A stretch of 64,000 bases of DNA, from NCBI GenBank assembly GCA_046563655.1, contig CM102288.1:3782001-3846000 (forward strand), in the 5' to 3' direction. The DNA comes from Yuukianura sp. NJ FZ-2021 (taxonomy: Eukaryota). Numbering within the stretch: the first letter of the stretch is position 1; each line of letters begins with the position of its first letter. The notes under the pieces were generated by a model. That model was not told where the DNA came from, did no database searches, and was given only the letters and a program-made list of their open reading frames with translations. Of the stretch, positions 173 through 53,200 are shown one piece after another. Position numbers and translations under genes: made by a program.

Positions 173-3100
173 ATGGACGCCGCCAATAAAAGTCAGGCAT
201 TTGCAGATGCACTGGCCCGAGCTCGTCAGGTACTTAACTTAACTTACTAACGTAATAGATGAGTAGTTAAGCCAAGTATTTAATGCTAATTAGTTTCTTG
301 TCTAAATAGCTGGCAGCAAAACTTGGAGCATCGAATCCAAATGGAGCTGTGGGAGGATCGGCCACAAGTCCCGGGCAAGGTGGAGGGTCAGTTGTGACTG
401 GAGTGAAACGAGGATTTGATGACTACCAGTCTCCGGGTAAAACGGCCTTGAAAAATACGTATTTACTACGTTCGGAAGTAAATTCCTTGAGGCCGAAGTC
501 TTTTACTTCGGTCTCCATGTTGCTTCCAATAAAAAATTCCTAACGGGATGCGGAGGATTCGCTAACACCATTTTCGTATAAATGGAGTTTGATAGTAGAC
601 CTCCGCACAGTCAATTCATATCTGTAACTCTATCTCTAATCTACATTGCTATTTCCTAATTGATAATTGATCACTCTTTACAGAAAGAGATGTGAAGAGA
701 TTGGCCGGAAATGCAGCTTTATCTGACCCCTTCGGAGCTCAGCTTGCTGCGATGAAGGGAGTTGTTGGAGGTGGGAATATCAGCATGTCCGGTATGGGAA
801 TCAAGACTGGCTTAGGAATCAGTGGAAGCGGAAAAGCATGTACCGAAGAGATTAGAATTCCAGACCCTCTCGTTGGGCTCAGTAAGAAACCCATCAATCA
901 ATCATTTAAGTTAAACATGAATTGATTCTGACTGATTTTTATTAATTAGTAATCGGTCGTGGAGGAGAACAGATTAACAGGATTCAAAACGAAGCAGGCT
1001 GTAAAGTTCAGTTAGCTCCGGACACTGGGTCAGGTCAGGACAGACCATGTCACCTTCAAGGAACCAAGGAAGCTATCGAGTAAGTTACCTCGCTCTTACT
1101 TTGGCATTGTAAGTTGCCCATATAAAGCCAGGAGACTCCATGATTTATTGGAGATCAACTATGGAACTTGGGCAGAAATAAACCTGTCAGACTTTTTACT
1201 GCCGTCTACGAGTTGCATTCTCTTACGATGGAATCAAAGTCTTACACATTCTACTTTTCTACTGCAAATGAAGAAATGAATTGACATGAACTAATTAATC
1301 TGATGTGTAAAAGTTAATCTAATGATTAACTATTGTTGTGCTTTTTAGGAGAGCTAAGGAGATGGTGATGGAGATTGTGAGTTCGAAGAGTCATGAGATT
1401 GGGTCGAGTGGTCGTGGACCCCCAAAAGGTCCCCCTACTGGAACTCCCCAAGGGCAGGTACAGGTATTGTGACCACAGATTCAAAATACAGCTTAAGACC
1501 TTGACCTTCGCCTTATCGGGGTAACTTGAGACATTTTTGACGTAAATAGGTGGAGTTGATGATACCTGGGTCAAAAGTAGGATTGATTATCGGTAAAGGA
1601 GGAGAAACGATACGGAATTTACAAGACAAGTCCGGCACGAAGATGTTCATTCTGCAGGAAAACATGTTCGAGGAGTGTGACAAGCCGCTACGGATCGTCG
1701 GAGAGCCGGATCTCGTCGAAGTAACGATCCATTAGTCGGTCCGCTTGGACTCCCTTTAGTGTTTCTCTCTTTTGGTTTTCAGCATGCTCGTCAATTGGTT
1801 TTGGAATTAATTAGTGAGAGTCCAATGAAACAAGACTATGGAAAAGGAAAGAGCGAATATGGAGGTGGGGGGTTCGTCGGCGGCCCTGGAACGCAGACAA
1901 TGAAGTTTCCAGTTCCCAAAGTGTCTGTTGGTTTGATCATTGGCAAGGGCGGAGACATGATCAAGAGGATCCAGGTATCTTTAACATTAAGTTGACTAAT
2001 TGTTGACTGATTAATCCATTGAGGTAATTGAATTTTGGTTTTGTGTTTTAGGTTGAGACTGGTGCCAAAGTTCAGTTTGATCCGATCAACTCTGACATGG
2101 GAGACATGGATGAGCAGTTGGCTATTATCACAGGGAAGCCTGATCAGATTCGGTTGGCTCAACTGAAAATTGAAGAATTGGTGGAGACTGCTTTGTATGG
2201 CAAAGGAGGAGGGCCTGATCGACCTGAACGTGGCGGCGGAGGAGGAGGGCGTTGGGGTGACGGAGGAGGAAAGCCAAGGTTTGAAGGAGAAGAGGATCGG
2301 CTGACGGTTCCGGTGGGCAAAGTTGGAATGATAATTGGAAAAGGAGGAGAAACGATCAGAACGATCAACCAAACTTCGGGAGCCCACTGTGAAATTGACA
2401 GAAACTTACCACAGGATGGACCGGACAGAACTTTTGTCATAAGAGGAAATCGTCAGCAGATTGAACTTGCAAAGGAACTCATAAACGAAAAAGTCAATGC
2501 AGTCTTCCCACCAAAACCCGTAAGTGATTCAATACTTAAGTAGAAGTAGGTTCTGTGGCTTTCAAACTCAATGTTTTCTGTTGTTTAAGGATCGTCGAGA
2601 ACGTGGGGGTGGTGAATATGGAGGTCAAGGTCATCATCATCCAGGGAGTAACTGGGGTGGAGGCGGAGGAGGAGGCGGCTATGGAGGTCATGGAGGAGGA
2701 AGAGGAGACTGGAATGGAGGTGGAGGCCCTGGAGGGGATCCTTCGAAAGATCCAGCAGCGGTTCATGCTCAAGCACAGTGGGCGGCTTACTATGCCCAAT
2801 GTTATTCCCAGCCTCAACAAAGTCAACAACGTGAGACTTTCTGGAATCTCAAAGTCTTATAAAAATATTTTGAAATTGGAGTTTTCAAAACATTTTTTTT
2901 TTTGCTTTTGTGTGCAGCAGCTGGAGAAGGTGGTGCTGACTATACTCAGCAGTGGATTGAATACTTGCGAGCTCAAGGGAACCACCAGCAAGCGGACTTG
3001 TTAGAACAGCAGTCTAAGGCAGCCAAAGGAGAAACTGCTACTGCCAGTACTCCAGCTCAACCTGCTTCCAGTGCCCCCGCTGTCGACTACAGTCAACAGT

Positions 3101-3467
3101 GGGCAGAGCACTACCGATCCATCGGTAATTCACACAATTCCTCACTAAAAATTATGAACCTGCTAATTCATGCTTCAATTTTGTAGGGAAAATCAAGGAA
3201 GCTGAAGAAATTGAGGCTTACATCAGGTCGCAAAAGGTAAACAGTTCCACCAGCATCAAGAAATACTTGGAAGTATTTATGTTTTCGATTTCATACTGTA
3301 CTGTAACCATGGTTTCACAGGGTGAAGCTAAACCAGATGACAGAAGTGGCAGTAGCGGAGGGCCAGGAGCTGAGTCAAGCTACAACTACTATTCTTCCTA
3401 TGGAAATGGACAAGGAGGATCCAGTTCACATCAAAAGTCAGCTTTGACACCGCCAGGAGAATCCTAG
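173..3467 (+). CDS. FUBP1: Far upstream element-binding protein / P-element somatic inhibitor (4 KH domains, C-terminal Tyr-rich AB repeats), multi-exon
   Basis: N-terminal AFADALARARQLAAK. Four KH GxxG loops: IGRGG at ~952 and IGKGG three times. C-terminal DYTQQWIEY and DYSQQWAEHYRSIG repeats. GT-AG introns join these in frame. Confidence 0.93.
474..612 (+). ncRNA. Intronic box H/ACA snoRNA (FUBP intron)
   Basis: Hairpin 1: GGAAGTAA/TTGCTTCC with upper stem AGGCCGAAGT/ACTTCGGTCT. H box ATAAAA at 529-534. Hairpin 2: GCGGAGG/CCTCCGC followed by ACA at 607-609. The 3' pocket is complementary to the conserved 28S sequence UCUACUAUCUAGCGAA. Confidence 0.88.
1114..1250 (+). ncRNA. Intronic box H/ACA snoRNA (FUBP intron)
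   Basis: Hairpin 1: TTGCCCA/TGGGCAG with inner CTCCA/TGGAG. H box AAATAA at 1176-1181. Hairpin 2: AGACTTT/AAAGTCT followed by ACA at 1244-1246. It sits in an intron much longer than its neighbours. Confidence 0.78.
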
Positions 3468-26941: not shown

Positions 26942-28813
26942 TTTGTAATTTTCGTCTTCCGTCTTTTGTAATAGGTGTCACTGTCAATCTCGTCCACTCT
27001 AAAAGAAATTCATTGATCACGGGACAGGACTTAAAAATTATTCGCATATTAAGAACACATTCTCACCTAAACGTTACTATAAATCCATCCTGCTGCCTGG
27101 CTGTTTCTTTCAAATCAAAATCAAAGCTTTACGGACGGAAAGACGGAATGCTATCTCGATCCAAGTTGCCAACAAGTACTGCACCGCTAATCATCCAAGA
27201 ACAGGAGAATGCTTTTAACCACCGCACCGCCGTTGACAACGACGACCCGTCGTTGTTCTTGCGTTGAGAGAGCGAGAGTTCCTGTTCCTATCGAAAACAA
27301 AACGTTGGAGATTACTCATGATTTTTTTTGCAGAATGTGGCAAATCGAAATCCAACTTACAGTTTTTCAAGCGTCACGAACAATGTAGACGTAGAGGGAG
27401 ACGATGATGAAGAGCTGGACACGGACAGGACAGTCTAGGTATCAATCCTATCCAAATACTCCCTGACACTCGTAGAAGTCAGACCAGCTGAGCAACGGGA
27501 GCAATTTCATGTATGAAAACAATCAAAAAACTTCCAAGCCGAAAAAGCCAATTCAGCAAAAACACCTTACTATAAGTAGGTAGTATAGCGAAACTCACCC
27601 TACAAGTTGGTTGAATTGAGGCAGAGGTGCCATAACTTCTTTTTCTTAGCTTATCTTTATACTTATTTAATTGTTTAATTACAATTCCAGCATTCGGCCT
27701 TTCCTCCATTCAGCTCCAAAAGTTAGAGTGCATGTGAATTTTTTTACCAACTGAGTAAATGTGTATTATAGTTTCTCATGTGTAATGAGGAGGACGAGGA
27801 AGTCATAATTTAGGTTTCTCGTTTCTCAGTCCAGCCATCTTCTGACCTTCTTACAAGTAAAGGCGCTAGACGAGGCTAGAAACTTTTGAAGGTGTGATGA
27901 TGATGTTTTAAAAGAACAATTCTGAAAACATTTCAACTTCCCATAAATTACTAAATTACTAAAATTACTAAAGTGTAATTTCCTCAGCCTCATCATGATT
28001 TTTCACAAAAGTAAATGGACTAGAAAGGTAAAAGTTAGAAGTTTTGTGATGGTGTTATAAAAAAACACAATATTTTGGAAAATTTTAGTTTCTCATGATG
28101 GAGGAAGTTACGTGTTAGAGACAATTAACAACCATAGTAAAACAACGCTCGATAGTGAGGGCGTGAAAATGTTTCTAACTTACCATGTACGCTTGGTTTC
28201 ACTAAATTGGTATCCTTTCTTTTGTGACCCCTCCGCAACCAAAGTGCAGGGATCCTCGCTCAGCAGTCACAAAAGAAAGGTGGCAAAAAAAATACACAGA
28301 ACGCACAAAGTTTTGAAACGGAGCATTCTTCGAATGCTTCTTCCGGAAACGGTTAGCCAGTGTAAGCCTTACTTGAACCAACTGTAGGGCAGATTCACCC
28401 GCTTTTCCAAACACAAAAAAGTCTCAAATCGCAATAAGAGAGCAACGCGTCTCGCTGAACGATTCGTCGCCATTAAATTTCTCTGGCTCTGCTCTTGTTT
28501 CGCATTGAATCTGGTGGAGTCTCGACTTGGCCCTTCTCCGCTATTCCAAAAGTGATAATTCAAATTTGGACGCAGCAACATAACAACAACATTAGAAAAA
28601 ACTGAAGGAACGGTTCCTGTATCCTGTGGTACGATACGCCTATCGTTTCTTGGCGGGCATCCTTGTCTCTGGGTCTGGACGTTCCCGTTTACCCAGTAAG
28701 TAAACTAAATTATAATCATCTGATAAATTAATTCATTCATTCACACCCTGTTTGCAGTTGTATTTTTATTCTAGGACTAGCATTGACTGACATCGTCCTG
28801 TTTGTTTGTTGGA

Positions 28814-31143
28814 ATGACTACTAACACATCTAGCGAAGAGACATCTCAATCTCAAGCAATGGAAACAAATGACCCACTTCCATTTTGCCTCTTATGCAAC
28901 GTCACCCTAAACACGGCCTCCAGTGATGAAGAACCAGCCGAGAAGGAGCAGAATGCTGAAGGCCTTGTTCTCGTCAATCCGCCAGGATCCGGAACTGGAG
29001 CTGAAGTTGAAGAGGACGAGAATGCCAAAATACTGCACATTGCCCAGGAGATGGAGGAAGTACATGGTGAAGATGTTGGAACTGGATCTGCAGCGATAGA
29101 AGTGATGGGCCTGAAAGTGGGCACTGGAGATAAGAAAACTGAGGGGACTGGAGACACGAAGTCTTCGGGGTCAGGACTTGGAGATGCAGAGTGGATTCAG
29201 AAGTACCAATCATTCTTATCTAAAACACTTCATCTCAATATGGATGAAATTCTTGAGGATGAGGATGGGTATTCATATTACCGGTTTGGTAAGTACAAGC
29301 AGATCAAAATTCTTTCACCAAGTACAAAGGAATTAATTATTTGTGTGAATTTTAGAAGGAGGAAGGAAACCGACATCGCCAGAAGAGGAACTGATACTTT
29401 TTTGCAGCAAATGTAAAACAGAAGTGGAAAAATTGTATGAAGACAATGAAAAAGTGAAACTGGCGACAAAAACTTTTGAGGATAGAAGGGACAGCATTAC
29501 GGCTTGCATCGCTCGAACATTTGTTGACAGGAAACTTCGTGCTGAAGAACTAACGGAAGAGGATGTCGACATGGAAGAAGCAAGGATCAGCACAACCGAA
29601 ATCCTGCTAGAAAGTAAATTCGAGTTATCAAGTCGAATAATCTTAGCACTTTTTTTTTGTAAAAGAAAATGTTGATTCACTTTAGAATGGAGGCCAATTT
29701 ACACCGGAGAAGCCGAACGTGAGCTCAAGGAAAGAAACCTAATCAACGAAATTCGTGAAGAAATTCTATCACGAAGTGAAACACAACCCAAGACAGAATT
29801 CCCAGAAGGCACAGGACTTTCAGCAATGGAACTGTAAATGCTTCCTTCATCTCTGGATCGCTGATTCTTGTTAAGTCTGATAAATAAACAGTTGTATTTT
29901 TCATTTCAGTTCTAAGATGCAGCGAATGATGACTGCATGTTACTTCACTCCGAAGATGTCCATTCTTCGCAAGAAAGGCAAACTGTTCTTTCGAGTTGGA
30001 ATTCCAAGAGATGAAAAAGACAAAGCCAAAGTCTACAATTGTCCAGTTTGTGACGACACATTCAACCATCAACGTTCTCTCAGCGTTCACATGCGCCGTC
30101 ACAAAGTGGCTCGTCCATCACATCAAATCAATCACACTTGTCCAACTTGTGGTCTGTCATATCCAGATCGCAGAGCTCTGATTTTCCACAAGAGGAGTCA
30201 CTATATTGGAACAATTAATGCTCCAGGCATCAGATATCAACGGGTTCAAGAGTACTACAGTTGCTGTATCTGTTCCTGTCGATTTGCTTCAAAAGCCGGT
30301 AGAAACTCTCATATCAAAAAGCATCACCCGAATGAGAAGCTCTGCACTTGTGCCCTTTGCCTAGAAGTTTTCAAATCCGAGGTTGCACTGAAAGCACATT
30401 TTGAAAATACACATCGAGAGCTTACCACTGATGACTACACGCCGCATCCTACTGAACTATTTACATGTGTCGAATGTTCCAAACAATTTCTCAGAATCAA
30501 GTCACTCATTGAACATCGTCGTGTCCATGCCATAGAGACTCTGAGCGAATGCTACTACTGCGGAATGGGCTTCGAGGGAATGGATAGTCTTCGGGATCAT
30601 ACCAATGTCACTCACATGATTCCCAATCCATTCATGTGTGATGGTTGCGACGACTGTTTTCCAACTGAAGAGGCTCTGAATGAACACATGAAGTCAAAAG
30701 CTCAACAGCGAAGCAACAACACCATCGTCTGCGAAGTACCCAACGGAAGTCAGTTTGTTAAGAAAAAGGAGCAAGTATTATCAGCTGATGACGATGATAC
30801 CTCATCCGTGACCAAGATTCATCCAATAGCGTTGCCAATAACTGTGCCACCGCCACAACGAGTTACCAAACCGTTGATTGTGAATGATGTGACAGTAAGG
30901 GACGACGGGTTACATGAAAGATTTGCTCCACTTATTATGAAGAGTCTCCAGGACAAGTCGAATCAACCGATCATCGTACGAAGAGGGATCCAAGTTCCGG
31001 ACAAGACGACATTTCCATATGCTGCGGCAATTCAAATCAAAAGTGACGGAATTACAACTGATGGGGAGATAATTGAAGCAACTGATGGACCTGCAGAAGA
31101 TGAGGGAGAGCAGCAACAGCAGTACATCATTTACAATGTATAG
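28814..31143 (+). CDS. C2H2 zinc-finger protein with split ZAD-like N-terminal CxxC...CxxC
   Basis: About seven CxxC-x12-HxxxH fingers in 29917-31143. N-terminal FCLLC and FCSKC pairs followed by a helical segment. Confidence 0.8.
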
Positions 31144-31516
31144 TTGTAGTAAAAACACTTTGCAAATGTTAAAAACAATTTATATATAATGTTTAATAGT
31201 GAGATAATTAGCATTTAATTAACTTGAATTATGTTCTTTTGATTCCATTAGTTAAATAAGTTCTGTTGTGGGGAGGGCGGGGGTATTTAGATTTTATATA
31301 AATAAAGAATTATAATTTAAACTAGCTTATGAAAGTTGAATAAAATGAATCATGATTTTCTCTTTGACAAAAAAAATTAACTTATTTAATTCAGGCAAAA
31401 TATAAAAAAAATTGTGCAAAGTCTCTGACAAACTTCGCTTAGAAGGTCTCCATTGGTCAATTTGAACGTCTAGCGTGATCGGAGCCCGCGATAGTACGAT
31501 AGCAAAAATAAATGTT

Positions 31517-31588
31517 TACACCCGGCGAGATTTGCACTCGCATCTTCGGTACATAAGACCGACGCCTTAACTATTAGGCTACGGGTGT
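31517..31588 (-). tRNA. Non-canonical tRNA or tRNA-like gene, anticodon UAU (Ile)
   Basis: Minus strand reads ACACCCG TA GCCT AATAGTTA AGGC G TCGGT CTTATGT ACCGA AGAT GCGAG TGCAAAT CTCGC CGGGTGT A. All four stems are perfectly paired. TTTTT terminator ~10 nt downstream; TATATAAA upstream at 31613-31606. Confidence 0.8.
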
Positions 31589-31770
31589 CTCCAGTACCGT
31601 CTTCCTTTATATACAAGATAACAAACGTGGTACGCTAAGTTATCTTTCACGCCGACGCAAAGCAAGTGATTGATTACGCATTCCTGTACAAGAGTACTGA
31701 TAACGATACATTCCATCGTTCTCAAGATTTCAATTTTTATTTCTATTTTCTGTTGACCTTTGACCTCAAA

Positions 31771-33534
31771 TTAATGCTTTTTAAGCTTACGAACGTAGGC
31801 CTGGTTTTCAGGATTTCCTTCCACAAGAAACTTGAGTGTGACAATGGAACATTGAGGAATGAAGGGATTTCTGCTGTCGATTTTAGTACAGTTTAGAATC
31901 ACTGGTAGAACTCCCATCTCTCGAACTTGATTCTGGTTGACCTCTGACCCCTGTACTAAGAATCCAAGCAAACGTATCAAGTCAGCTTTGAACAAAAATC
32001 CAGGTTCAGTCATCAGATCTTCCGAGTTGCTGTCCAGCTTGTCAACTGGAGTGAAGCAGTTGTCGCCACTGGCTCCAATTTCATGGATTGATCTTAGCAG
32101 GGCTGGAATTAAACACAAGTTAATTTCAACTTTCAACTCTTTTTTAAACTCAATTCTTTCAACTTTCAACAATTTTTGAGACTACCAATTGTGGAAATGA
32201 CAAAGCTTGTGTCAAACTTCATCATTTGTGCAAGATGGTCGTTCTGCATGAATTTACAGAAGAGTTCTGCCATTGCTGTCGTTTCCAAAACGTTGAAGTC
32301 GTTTGGAACGCCACTCGAGTTTGTCGTAAGAATCTGGTCAGCCGAATTTTTGAAATTTGACACCAGCAATGCCAAATTCTACAAACGTAAAGAAACAAAA
32401 GAAGTGCAGTGTTTTCTACCTCCAAATTTTGTAACTTCTGAAATATTTTTTTTACCTTGTCCGAAAAAGATTCAATAACTTTGGAATGTGCCCCGAACGT
32501 ATACAAGCATTTAACCTTGACCTCTTCTTCCAACTCAGGATAAAACAGTGGTAGAAAGTTTTCAATGGCAATGAGCGTTTCCACCCACAGCATGCTGAAA
32601 AACAAATCAGGAAATGAAACGTTTGAGAAAAAAACAACACCTATTTTTTGTTTTAGAATTTTTACACAAATTCAATGTGAACGTGTTCAAACAAAAGCTG
32701 GACCGTGAGAGTATCCAGTTTTTCCAACATTTCGTCCGGTTGTTGCTGGGTCAAGGTTCGACCAATCATGGCAGCGTAATTGCATACTCGGCTGTCTCCA
32801 TGCTTAAGCCAATCAATCCTGAAACAGTATCAAAATCGCAATTAGAAGCCCGATTCTTTCCAATTTTAAGAAATTAAAAGCTTACATCCAATTCATGACG
32901 TTGTACTTTGTCCACAACCTTTGACAGTTGTTTGGATTGGATACGATTGAATTTCCAATAACTTGGAGTCCCAATGCTCGAATCGACTGGCTGTAGAAGC
33001 TGACATAGACGCTGCTACTGCTTCTGTCCAGAATTTGATTAATTATGACCTCAACAGCTCCACTATCATAAAGCAAATCCTGATTTTCGGTGCAATTGAC
33101 CACAGCATTTCGAAGTACCCGCAGAATCCACACCGAAAGGACATCGTTTTCAGATTTTTGGAAAAGTTGCATCAGTTTTTCAAAAAATTCCAGCGGAATG
33201 CCATTTCTGAAAAGAAAGTCAGATGTTTCAGGGTTTTAGTGTGAACCTCACGCAAAAATGTCTCATAGTGCCCCCAGCTTGGCGCGAAATTTATGAAGTT
33301 TAAATCCTTGAAATAGCCGATTCATTTCTTTCTTGTTTTTTTTTCTGTCAGTCATCCACCGTTTCTTACAGATTTCGCTAATTGTTTGTCAATTACTAAT
33401 TGGAAATTGGATTACCTGTTGTCAGCATTTTGAAGACTTGAGGTAAGTGATTCAAGTATCGCAACAAGATTCGAGTTTCCGGTTGTAGAATTAGCCAAAA
33501 AATTGTCAATGTCAAGAGCTAACTTTTTATCCAT
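31771..33534 (-). CDS. ATXN10: Ataxin-10, multi-exon
   Basis: C-terminal FKADLIRLLG..NQNQVREMG....ILNCTKIDSRNPFI...GNPENQ (ataxin-10 domain) and LRVLRNAVVNC.ENQD. Exon 1 (33534-33416) joins in frame to the exon starting at ~33206. Confidence 0.88.
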
Positions 33535-50280: not shown

Positions 50281-53200
50281 ATGGTAGTGATCAAGCAAAT
50301 CAAATCCTACGACCTTCCTGCACTGTTTCCATCAAAAGTTGGGGTCATCGCTGTGTCAGTGGACAACCAAGTTGTCACCCTTCATCGCAAAGGAGCACTA
50401 ATTCTTGTAAGTAATCAACGTTACATGAGAATAAGGGGGTGTGGTGCAGGATGTTTAATTGTTGTTAGTCTACTGATACTTAATGATACAGTTCTATTCT
50501 TAACGTGTACTTGGAAAGTAATTGTTAATTAGTTGTAGTAGGTTCTGGGTTAGTCAAAAATCATAAATGAAGGGGTAAATAGGGCTGATGAGTCACTTTT
50601 TTTTGGAGATACTGTCGATAGTTTGTCTTTTGTTGGGTAACACGCAACTTTTTATCTTTTGTTTGTAGTAACTCTCGGTAAATATTTGACGGTCACTGTC
50701 CATCATTCGAAAAATACCAGTTGTGGTGTGCCCATTACGGTAACTGAAACTGAACTTCTGGAAGATCAATTTCCTAATTTTGATCTTTAGATCTCAGCCT
50801 CCTCCAGATCTTCATAACTGTTAAACATGTTAAAATCAATGTCAAGATTCTACGGCATCATAATAATCGTCATACTGCTGCCAAGTTCTCTGTCCCAGAA
50901 GTTAGTGCTAGACAAAGGTGGATTTTCGGGCAAAGATGTAACACCAATCGTCTTTGGTTCTGAAGAGAGCAAGGAAGTATTTCCAGTGGCTTATGCCGAT
51001 TTCAACTCAGACAAAATCACCGACATTCTGAGCCTGTCACGCGATCAGTCCACTTTGTCCATTTGGTTTGGCCAAGAAACACTTTCTCCTCTATTCAAAC
51101 AGTCAATCCAATGCAGTCTGCAAGAAAACTGGGAAGGTGTTGGATATGCTGGACGAAACGCTCCAATGAAAATAGTCGGAGTCGTTACTGCTGATTTCAA
51201 TGGAGATTCAATTCTTGATGTCATGATTACCTACAAGAGGAATCCAGAAAAGGTGTTGCATAACGACGGAAATGCTTGTGTCAACGTCACGAGCAGTGTG
51301 GAAGCTGTCATTTTCCGAGGAAACTTGACAACTTTAGAGTGTAACTTGCCAGTACTTCCGGATCATGTCATTGATAATCTCGTGGATGAACCTTTGGCTC
51401 TTGACATCAATGGTGACATGGTCATGGACCTGTTTGGGGAAGTTTATGTTCCGGGAAACCTTGATGCTGAGAAAAATTGTTCAAGAGTGAAGATTGAAAA
51501 GAAAATTTGGTTGTTCAAGTCCACTTCAGCAGGAGACTTTACTTCGACACCCATTTTGCCGCCCACACCAATCAATTTCACACTGGCCGATCACTCTTTC
51601 CCTGACCCACATGACACCGTCAACTGTACGAGACCGCATGTCAACTCTTTTGGTGACATTGACGATGACGGCGTTCCAGAACTGATTCTCATAACCGGAA
51701 AACTACAAGAATCGCATGACCACAACAACTCCTGGAAGTACCAACGAAAAATTTACCAAATCAAGCTGGACGATCCCACTGTACCGAAGTTTCGTCTGAT
51801 GCTGCCACCAGTAGACATCACATCTCCAAGTCTGGTCGATCCACAAGTCATTGGTCAACCAATCCTGATGGACTTGAACCAAGAAGCCAAACTGCTTCAA
51901 CTATTTCCATTTTGCTCTGGAAAACATTGCGGCAAGGGTGCCAATGGAATCTTGGTTGTCACTGAAAATAGAACAGAAGTTTTACCGATCGACTTTGGGG
52001 ATGCTACTGGAAAATGGCATTACGATTTCAACAAGCATGAGAAACAGTATCCCAATGGCAGTCCACACTCAAACTACTCTCAAGCCCTGACACTTCGGGC
52101 GGGAGATTTCAATTTGGATGGATTTCCAGACCTTATCGGAATTCTTCGACCTTCTGGAAGAGAAAAGGAGCGGGAAATTATAAACAGTCGAGCAGTTTTG
52201 TTCGAAAACGTTCCATGTACGTCCTCTGACAAATCGACATGTCCATTTCCCAGAACGTTTAAGATTAACTTTGATGCTCTTAACCAATACCATAATGTCA
52301 CTTTGGCCACATTCTTTGACCTCCACGAAGACGGCCTCGTTGACATCATCATTGTTCGCAAGACAGACGACAAGTCAGAGCGATACAAAGACACTTACTC
52401 AGTCTATGCTTTTCAAAATAGTCCAGACTACGATGCCAACTTTATGAAGGTCATGGTCCTGTCCGGGCTACCCTGTCTACTATGTCCACAGACTCAGACA
52501 CCTTATGGAAACCTTCTATCCGGTCCAGTCATCAAGTACATGACGACAACTCAGGCAGATCGGTATCAAACAGCAGTTGCTGCGCAGTTTTACCGTTCGT
52601 CTCATTTTGCTCTGGATTTACCCTATACGATCTTCGGTGTCGGTCAATCACCGAACTTCATTGAAACACTTGAGATTTCGGTATCGACCAATCGGAGTTT
52701 GCGTACTCAACAGTGGCAACAACTCATACCCAACTCCCAGATAATTGTCATTCCAGCACCACTGGACCAACCGTTTTTCTGGAGTGCCAAGTTGTTTCTA
52801 ACACCAAGTCGAGCTGTTCTGAACACTGGACTTGTTCTAATTGGATTCTGTACCGTAATTTGTCTTATAATTGGCGGACTCCAATATAAGGAAAGGCGAG
52901 ATGACATGAAGGAGAGACTTCAAGAAGCTTTTCATATGATGTGAACCTCAAAATATTAATTTTAGTCTTATTTTTGTGCCACATTTTCCTTCTACTATGT
53001 TTAGTAATCTAAAAAATGTAATTAATCATGAACTAATTAAGTAATTAATTAATTATTTTGTCGTTAATTAACAAAAACCCAACATGTTATACCGCACTAT
53101 GACTAATTTATTCTCTAACTTTTACAATATAATCAATTACACAGTAGATTGAGATCTGCGCACAACTAAATGCCTGAATTATGCTAAATTAGAATAAAAC

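Follow-up and report, generated by a model that had tools for sequence, protein, structure and literature searches.

The bases at positions 18 and 55 of tRNA, i.e. G18 and Psi55, are among the most conserved in biology, and in the gene considered here, which is nuclear and apparently constrained, both of them are changed at once. The question raised by this locus is whether such a gene is kept as a tRNA, in decoding or outside it, or has come to be there in some other way. It bears on two wider issues: whether a tRNA elbow can be built with a G-type T-loop, and whether animals keep tRNAs for non-decoding work. A preliminary description of the locus had offered four options, namely a maintained atypical tRNA, a tRNA-like RNA with a non-translational role, the head of a young SINE, and a gene of foreign origin; the first two remain the best, and the last two are not supported.

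In the window, by which we mean the whole 64 kb stretch of DNA analysed, ARAGORN found a single tRNA, a tRNA-Ile with the anticodon tat at 31517..31588 on the minus strand. The same 72 nt match the Rfam family RF00005 with 68.9 bits (gathering score 29, E 6.4e-13, model positions 1-71 of 71), and a permissive Rfam scan of the whole window returned five matches at E values up to 1, of which this one alone was to a tRNA. The gene was also recovered by a script parse and as the minimum-energy fold, and the coordinates and strand of the 72-nt cloverleaf as first described are exact. Its stems are ACACCCG/CGGGTGT (acceptor), GCCT/AGGC (D), TCGGT/ACCGA (anticodon) and GCGAG/CTCGC (T) according to the script parse; all 21 pairs (7/4/5/5 bp) are Watson-Crick with no G-U among them, and the discriminator is A, just as had been claimed. 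The D loop reads AATAGTTA and position 26 is G; the 7-nt anticodon loop, CTTATGT, has U33 in place and carries UAU followed by G37 and U38; the variable loop is AGAT (4 nt) and the T loop is TGCAAAT. On the minus strand the anticodon lies at 31555-31553, A18 at 31572, G19 at 31571, G37 at 31552, U38 at 31551, U54 at 31536, G55 at 31535, C56 at 31534 and the discriminator A at 31517, positions that agree with a match of a sequence pattern on the plus strand. According to both ARAGORN and Rfam the 72 nt contain no insert, and thus no intron. The cloverleaf is the minimum-energy fold (-28.6 kcal/mol, z -4.18), equalled by 1 of 200 shuffles; the same fold adds a C32-G37 pair, which leaves an anticodon loop of 4 nt.

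An origin as a nuclear copy of mitochondrial DNA (NUMT) was considered and dropped in view of the complete cloverleaf and a G+C content of 51%. Arthropod mitochondrial tRNAs contrast with a gene of that composition and a full cloverleaf. On the opposite strand, positions 31516-31588 (+) match the Rfam family Plastid-ycf2 5'UTR at 33.8 bits, below its gathering score of 65.7. The consensus of that family reads as a reverse-complemented plastid gene of the tRNA-Ile type, so that the match would be a tRNA-tRNA cross-hit and not a second feature.

Of the invariant elbow set, G19, U54, C56 and A58 are kept in this gene, and G18 is replaced by A18 and Psi55 by G55. The other tertiary partners, i.e. 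U8-A14, A15-U48, G19-C56 and U54-A58, are all present. The preliminary description had AG in place of GG in the D loop, TGC in place of TTC in the T loop, GT at positions 37-38 and no intron, and the script parse agrees with each of these. The A was placed at position 18 and the following G at 19 on the basis of the Rfam alignment, which has a lower posterior probability for the four letters concerned, and of the likeness to a AATGGTTA-type D loop; an alternative register with G18 and U19 would keep G18 yet break the G19-C56 pair. It has been reported that G18G19 and U54-Psi55-C56 are conserved in all the mammal and insect tRNAs analysed in PMC9023262, in line with the background on which the preliminary description had relied.

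One reading of the gene is that it is simply the standard tRNA-Ile(UAU) of its lineage and the only decoder of AUA there. It does share with the metazoan Ile-UAU the anticodon UAU, U33, the discriminator A, four of the five positions of the T stem, and the A15-U48 pair that Ile-UAU is reported to have (PMC9023262), U48 being here the last base of the variable loop. Furthermore, AUA is a codon in use in this genome: of the 176 Ile codons counted over 11 ORF pieces from the window, 25 are AUA, and a proper decoder of it must therefore exist. The stems conserved in Ile-UAU among human, mouse and silkworm are GCUCCAG, GCGC, CGGUA and GUGAG (PMC9023262, Table 1), and those of our gene, ACACCCG, GCCU, UCGGU and GCGAG, agree with this signature at 11 of 21 positions by a hand count. 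By the same hand count the gene agrees at 16 of 21 positions with the row for Thr, at 15 of 21 with that for elongator Met, and at 17 of 21 with that for Arg, 6 of the latter being wildcards; no isotype row in Table 1 of PMC9023262 matches all four stems. Unlike the metazoan Ile-UAU, the gene has G37 and U38 in place of A37 and A38, A18 and G55 at the elbow, a variable loop of 4 nt, G30-C40 where Ile has U30-G40, and an A1-U72 pair, which is reported only for initiator Met and mammalian Leu-UAA (PMC9023262). It also lacks the intron for which Ile-UAU is marked as 'Ile-UAUi' in human, mouse and silkworm (PMC9023262, supplementary table); the earlier statement that animal Ile-UAU genes bear an intron is thus borne out for these three species. 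All human decoders of ANN codons are described as carrying t6A, as had also been stated, and this modification is impossible here because G37 stands in place of A37. Since no row fits all of its stems, the gene cannot be equated with the conserved animal Ile-UAU or with a recent duplicate of any conserved isotype; a canonical parent would have had to undergo many substitutions to arrive at these stems, each one compensated (21 of 21 pairs Watson-Crick). That the gene is the standard Ile-UAU of its lineage, which had been named as a possible refutation, is improbable given the stems, the missing intron, G37 and the loss of G18 and Psi55, which all the mammal and insect tRNAs analysed have, and the proper AUA decoder is expected elsewhere in the genome.

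A second possibility is that a viral, bacterial or organellar gene was inserted into an animal genome. To look for relatives we used a pattern made of the D loop of the gene, CTTAT and the T loop, in a version with R18 and K55 and in one with A18 and G55 fixed. The R18/K55 version found 31 loci in IMG/VR, of which two were not tRNAs and the other 29 were phage tRNA-Ile(UAU). These phage tRNAs resemble our gene in their length of 72-76 nt, their discriminator A and their 8-nt D loop of the form AATGGTTA, a loop likeness that was imposed by the pattern; many also have the D stem GCCT/AGGC and a 4-nt variable loop, and several have U38. G18 and T55 occur in every one of the 29 and G37 in none, and their stems differ from those of our gene. 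A tRNA-Met(CAU) was also called in 16 of these 29 loci (L003-L031), within the locus of about 650 nt and nearly always adjacent. With A18 and G55 fixed, the pattern matched seven loci in JGI metagenomes and five in prokaryote genomes, none of the 12 being a tRNA; as these collections hold few animal contigs, this negative is weak. A blastn search against 50,697 phage records returned seven records, the best at E=2 and none covering 80% of the query. Apart from the length, the D loop and the variable loop, a foreign origin could draw on the Plastid-ycf2 match of the antisense strand, which at 33.8 against 65.7 bits is weak. In view of the resemblance imposed by the pattern, the uniform G18 and T55 of the phage tRNAs, the animal genes on both flanks and the eukaryote-style TATA and oligo-T signals described below, we regard an inserted foreign gene as very unlikely. 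Nor was an orthologue seen in any clearly different species, in collections that hold few animal contigs; no published tRNA with A18 and G55 was found in a whole-word search of a full-text library, and nothing relevant on atypical or tRNA-like genes came up in that library.

The heads of SINEs are typically tRNA-like Pol III units with altered loops, and the gene might accordingly be the head of a young tRNA-derived SINE or of another dispersed repeat. However, the 17-mer of its T arm is unique in the window even when three mismatches are allowed, and no direct or inverted repeats or target-site duplications framing the gene were found. In the contigs of four DNA runs there were no contigs that carry the gene with other flanks, and no loose contig ends at its borders. 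Over the gene the contigs are as deep as over its flanks, or as deep as the two haplotype contigs added together, this depth not being a copy number. The gene is thus apparently single-copy, and because a T5 run begins nine nucleotides past the discriminator, there is no room for a SINE body or tail before the terminator. A dispersed repeat is accordingly given very little weight.

The gene has signals of a likely Pol III unit around it, and both the upstream TATATAAA and the downstream oligo-T of the preliminary description are present, at -25..-18 and at +9..+13, respectively. The TATATAAA octamer, a candidate TBP/TFIIIB site, lies at 31606..31613 (-), counted from the mature 5' end A1. It occurs four times over both strands of the 64 kb (128 kb in total), i.e. 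about 0.03 per kb per strand, and the chance of finding one within a given 40-nt stretch of one strand is about 0.001. None of the listed variants (40 of 90 sites) falls inside it, the nearest being at 31603 and 31615. The T5 run at 31504..31508 (-), preceded by a T3 run at +5..+7, is the likely Pol III terminator, although TTTTT occurs about 8 times per kb per strand in the window and T5 alone is weak evidence of a terminator. A T8 run at 31404..31411 (-), about 105 nt downstream of the tRNA, matches the terminator consensus and might serve as a back-up, and a terminator search found a 9-pair hairpin before it at 31416..31438 (-), about 80-110 nt downstream; hairpin and T8 together are the sole terminator-like site in 31300-31800, where 0.4 would be expected from shuffles. 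Of the internal promoter elements, the A box is off consensus only at position 18, and T55 is part of the B-box consensus. As the gene has G55 instead, its transcription may be poor, and the upstream TATA element may carry more of the load. It has been shown that TA-rich elements up to 50 nt upstream boost the transcription of tRNA genes, their usual place being -34..-29 (PMC3082873), and by analogy a promoter role of TATATAAA is likely, although it lies about 9 nt nearer to the gene than usual. We speculate that the nearer TATA leads to a very short 5' leader or to none, with transcription perhaps starting at A1.

The gene sits between a C2H2 zinc-finger gene on the plus strand, which ends at 31143, and the last exon of an Ataxin-10 homologue on the minus strand (31771-32181, stop codon 31773-31771, Pfam Atx10homo_assoc, E 1.5e-21). 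The window is gene-dense, and its genes are those of an animal: they encode KH/FUBP, CCCH and C2H2 zinc-finger, RRM, RWD-IBR, Ataxin-10, proteasome alpha-5, M13 peptidase, armadillo-repeat, glucuronyl C5-epimerase, ITFG1 and rhodopsin-type receptor proteins. For the proteasome exon, identity is 80-85% with named proteins of insects, Daphnia and decapods, and 90-99% with proteins of JGI contigs of about 1 kb. Judged by such matches, the window is animal DNA and would be that of an arthropod, probably a planktonic crustacean. As the tRNA gene lies on the same strand as the Ataxin-10 homologue, 182 nt past its stop codon, it could be imagined as a tRNA-like element for the 3'-end processing of the Ataxin-10 mRNA, similar to mascRNA in MALAT1, with RNase P cutting a Pol II transcript. 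An AATAAA at 31741 stands between the stop codon and the gene, though, and the gene has a TATA octamer at -25 and a T5 of its own as well as a regular 7-nt anticodon loop with U33, all of which makes this proposal the least credible of those weighed here.

Variation in and around the gene bears on whether it is under constraint. The locus is present in DNA data of five rows from two studies, under two organism labels, and we compared four runs over 30900-32200, using contigs only. This interval of 1301 nt holds 90 variant sites, 40 of which are listed by position. None of these 40 falls in a block of 105 nt (31498..31602) that comprises the tRNA, 14 nt upstream and 19 nt downstream of it; the listed sites nearest to the block are 31495 and 31497 at one edge, with 31603 and 31615 at the opposite one. 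Run X3 has two pairs of contigs, of which records 20 and 21 cover 31295-31527 and records 22 and 23 cover 31573-31732, and their ends at 31527 and 31573 overshoot the variants at 31497 and 31603, respectively, by exactly 30 nt. This geometry would be that of the bubble arms of a k=31 graph, if k is taken to be 31, and both X3 haplotypes would then be identical over the 105 nt in between. The diverged X3 haplotype (records 21 and 23) shows 24 substitutions in the 333 nt of flank outside the block, i.e. 7.2%. At that rate a Poisson model expects 7.6 changes in 105 nt and gives a probability of 5e-4 that there are none; for the 72-nt gene it expects 5.2 changes, with a probability of 0.006 for none. 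Within the gene only a single differing letter was seen; it occurs in run X2, in a minor contig of 60 nt (depth 17 as against 342.3), and, if it lies in the middle of that contig, falls in or beside the variable loop. A run labelled organism B has a contig of 664 nt across the gene, with 19 substitutions and 9 gaps relative to the window; 13 of the substitutions are listed and none of these is in the block, and the other 6 are unlisted and could fall in the gene. There is thus real but modest evidence that the gene and the few nucleotides next to it are under purifying selection, resting on 72-105 nt, an assumed k of 31 and 40 of the 90 sites. In intergenic DNA of 30900-32200 the divergence of the paired contigs from the window is about 7%, and the diversity is very high; pooled individuals, strongly diverged haplotypes or cryptic species may lie behind this.

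Whether an elbow can be formed with A18 and G55 is a separate matter. T-loops in general consist of a U-A handle and a UNR or GNR turn, and a clamping G is their usual form, the U clamp of tRNA being rarer; the base that is intercalated into the loop bonds that G (PMC2615604). At the second position of the loop tRNAs have U, and rRNA and other RNAs have G; a screen of riboswitch T-loops found this G to be nearly invariant, and several intercalating bases, A among them (PMC6158498). In the generic G-clamp T-loop, as found in rRNA, RNase P and riboswitches, the letters are U-G-N-R-A with a reverse-Hoogsteen U-A pair, the G at position 2 clamps a phosphate, and a purine from elsewhere is intercalated and bonded to that G. 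The T loop of our gene, U54-G55-C56-A57-A58, is exactly of this general G-type form; on the other hand, the generic loops belong to other RNAs, and position 2 of tRNA is U or Psi almost without exception. Given the G-type loop together with G19-C56, U54-A58, U8-A14 and A15-U48, an L-shape in which A18 is stacked between positions 57 and 58 and bonded to G55 is plausible by analogy, and it is likewise plausible that the changes at 18 and 55 are truly compensatory. The flat face formed by G19-C56, which is what RNase P and other elbow binders read (PMC4810234), would be intact.

The chief rival of a maintained gene is an inert relic, i.e. a lineage-specific tRNA duplicate that lost its function through G18A, U55G and the changes at 37 and 38, and whose stems stayed intact by chance or under low local diversity. 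The case for it largely coincides with the points against a maintained tRNA. A mutational scan of the yeast suppressor tRNA SUP4oc tolerated no single mutation in U8-A14, R15-Y48, G18-U55, G19-C56 or U54-A58, so that single changes at G18 or U55 abolish function there, and G18A was rescued only by U20G and not by a change at 55 (PMC4117946). In yeast, moreover, the intron of Ile-UAU is needed for Psi34 and Psi36, and the intronless form receives ncm5U34, which may read AUG (PMC9602550). To these may be added the missing intron of our gene, the loss of the B-box T55, the missing t6A37 site, and the lack of a relative in the collections scanned (IMG/VR, JGI metagenomes and prokaryote genomes). 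Against a relic, there is no conserved metazoan tRNA with these stems, and descent from one would take many changes with every pair restored; the rare TATA octamer and the terminator are intact; and none of the listed variants falls in 105 nt whose flanks are diverged by about 7%. The same evidence, i.e. perfect stems unlike those of any conserved isotype, the rare octamer with its terminator, and a block free of listed variants in diverged flanks, speaks for the earlier view that the gene does not look like random decay. A relic is possible and has to be taken seriously, but we doubt it.

We put at roughly one in two the probability that the gene is a maintained, Pol III-transcribed, single-copy orphan tRNA of an arthropod-like animal and probably not the main AUA decoder. 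On this orphan-tRNA reading, Pol III would use the upstream TATA, A and B boxes that are weakened at 18 and at 55, respectively, and the T5 terminator. The predicted cloverleaf would bend into an L-shape that keeps U8-A14, A15-U48, G19-C56 and U54-A58 and has A18/G55 in place of G18/Psi55, A18 being the purine that slots between 57 and 58 in the U-G-C-A-A turn of the G type. The RNA would keep its flat G19-C56 face and should thus still be a substrate of RNase P, RNase Z and the CCA-adding enzyme. The product would be devoid of Psi55, Gm18 and t6A37, and there would be no intron to direct Psi34 and Psi36; since it lacks all of these and its stems are unlike those of Ile-UAU, the main decoder of AUA is most likely another tRNA. 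The product would be a minor, specialised tRNA, either a weak reader of AUA charged by IleRS via A35-U36 and A73, or an RNA that is kept off the ribosome, and within the orphan-tRNA reading we consider the weak Ile/AUA reader and the RNA off the ribosome about equally likely. If the gene proves to be silent, it would be an ordinary odd tRNA-like gene, as tRNA finders report in many invertebrate genomes.

A bolder reading, which we hold to be unlikely, is that A18/G55 is a selected compensating swap to a G-clamp T-loop, and that the gene yields a tRNA without Psi55 and t6A that folds and is processed and yet kept from normal decoding. The nearest parallel is offered by the non-proteinogenic tRNA-Gly of staphylococci (NP1-NP3), which supply glycine for the cell wall and are excluded from the ribosome. 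Like our gene, they form tidy cloverleafs without conserved elbow bases, in their case G18-G19 and U55. The preliminary description had presented them as having an altered D-loop GG together with a UGC T loop, and of this the absence of G18-G19 and U55 stands according to the papers. In our gene, G18 and U55 are lost and G19-C56 is kept, whereas NP1-NP3 have lost G19 too; in addition, the staphylococcal tRNAs are bacterial and specific for glycine, and they are excluded through weak EF-Tu determinants and used by Fem enzymes. If the swap were real, the staphylococcal non-proteinogenic tRNAs would have in this gene their first counterpart that is nuclear and from an animal, and its RNA could donate an amino acid, act as a sensor or decoy for factors that bind the elbow, or give rise to small RNAs. 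The gene also provides a test substrate for the factors that read the elbow or position 55, i.e. Pus4, Trm2, RNase P, RNase Z, the CCA enzyme and exportin-t.

Some further features of the window deserve mention. The homologue of ITFG1 (T-cell immunomodulatory protein) at 50818-52944 (+) forms one unbroken frame of 708 codons; its best named matches are to branchiopod and copepod proteins at about 30% identity, metagenome proteins reach 65%, and it groups with arthropod clusters in a protein atlas. Upstream of the 419-codon multi-C2H2 frame at 29884-31143 (+) lies an acidic frame of 209 codons at 28787-29416 (+) with no Pfam match, and the two (28787-31143, +) may be exons of one gene. Finally, positions 471-612 (+) resemble an H/ACA snoRNA below threshold, with matches to ceN58 (38.8 bits, gathering score 60, E 5.6e-4) and SNORA62 (32.2 bits, gathering score 80); the segment lies just upstream of the pieces of a KH/FUBP-type gene at about 2052-3186, and may be an intronic snoRNA.
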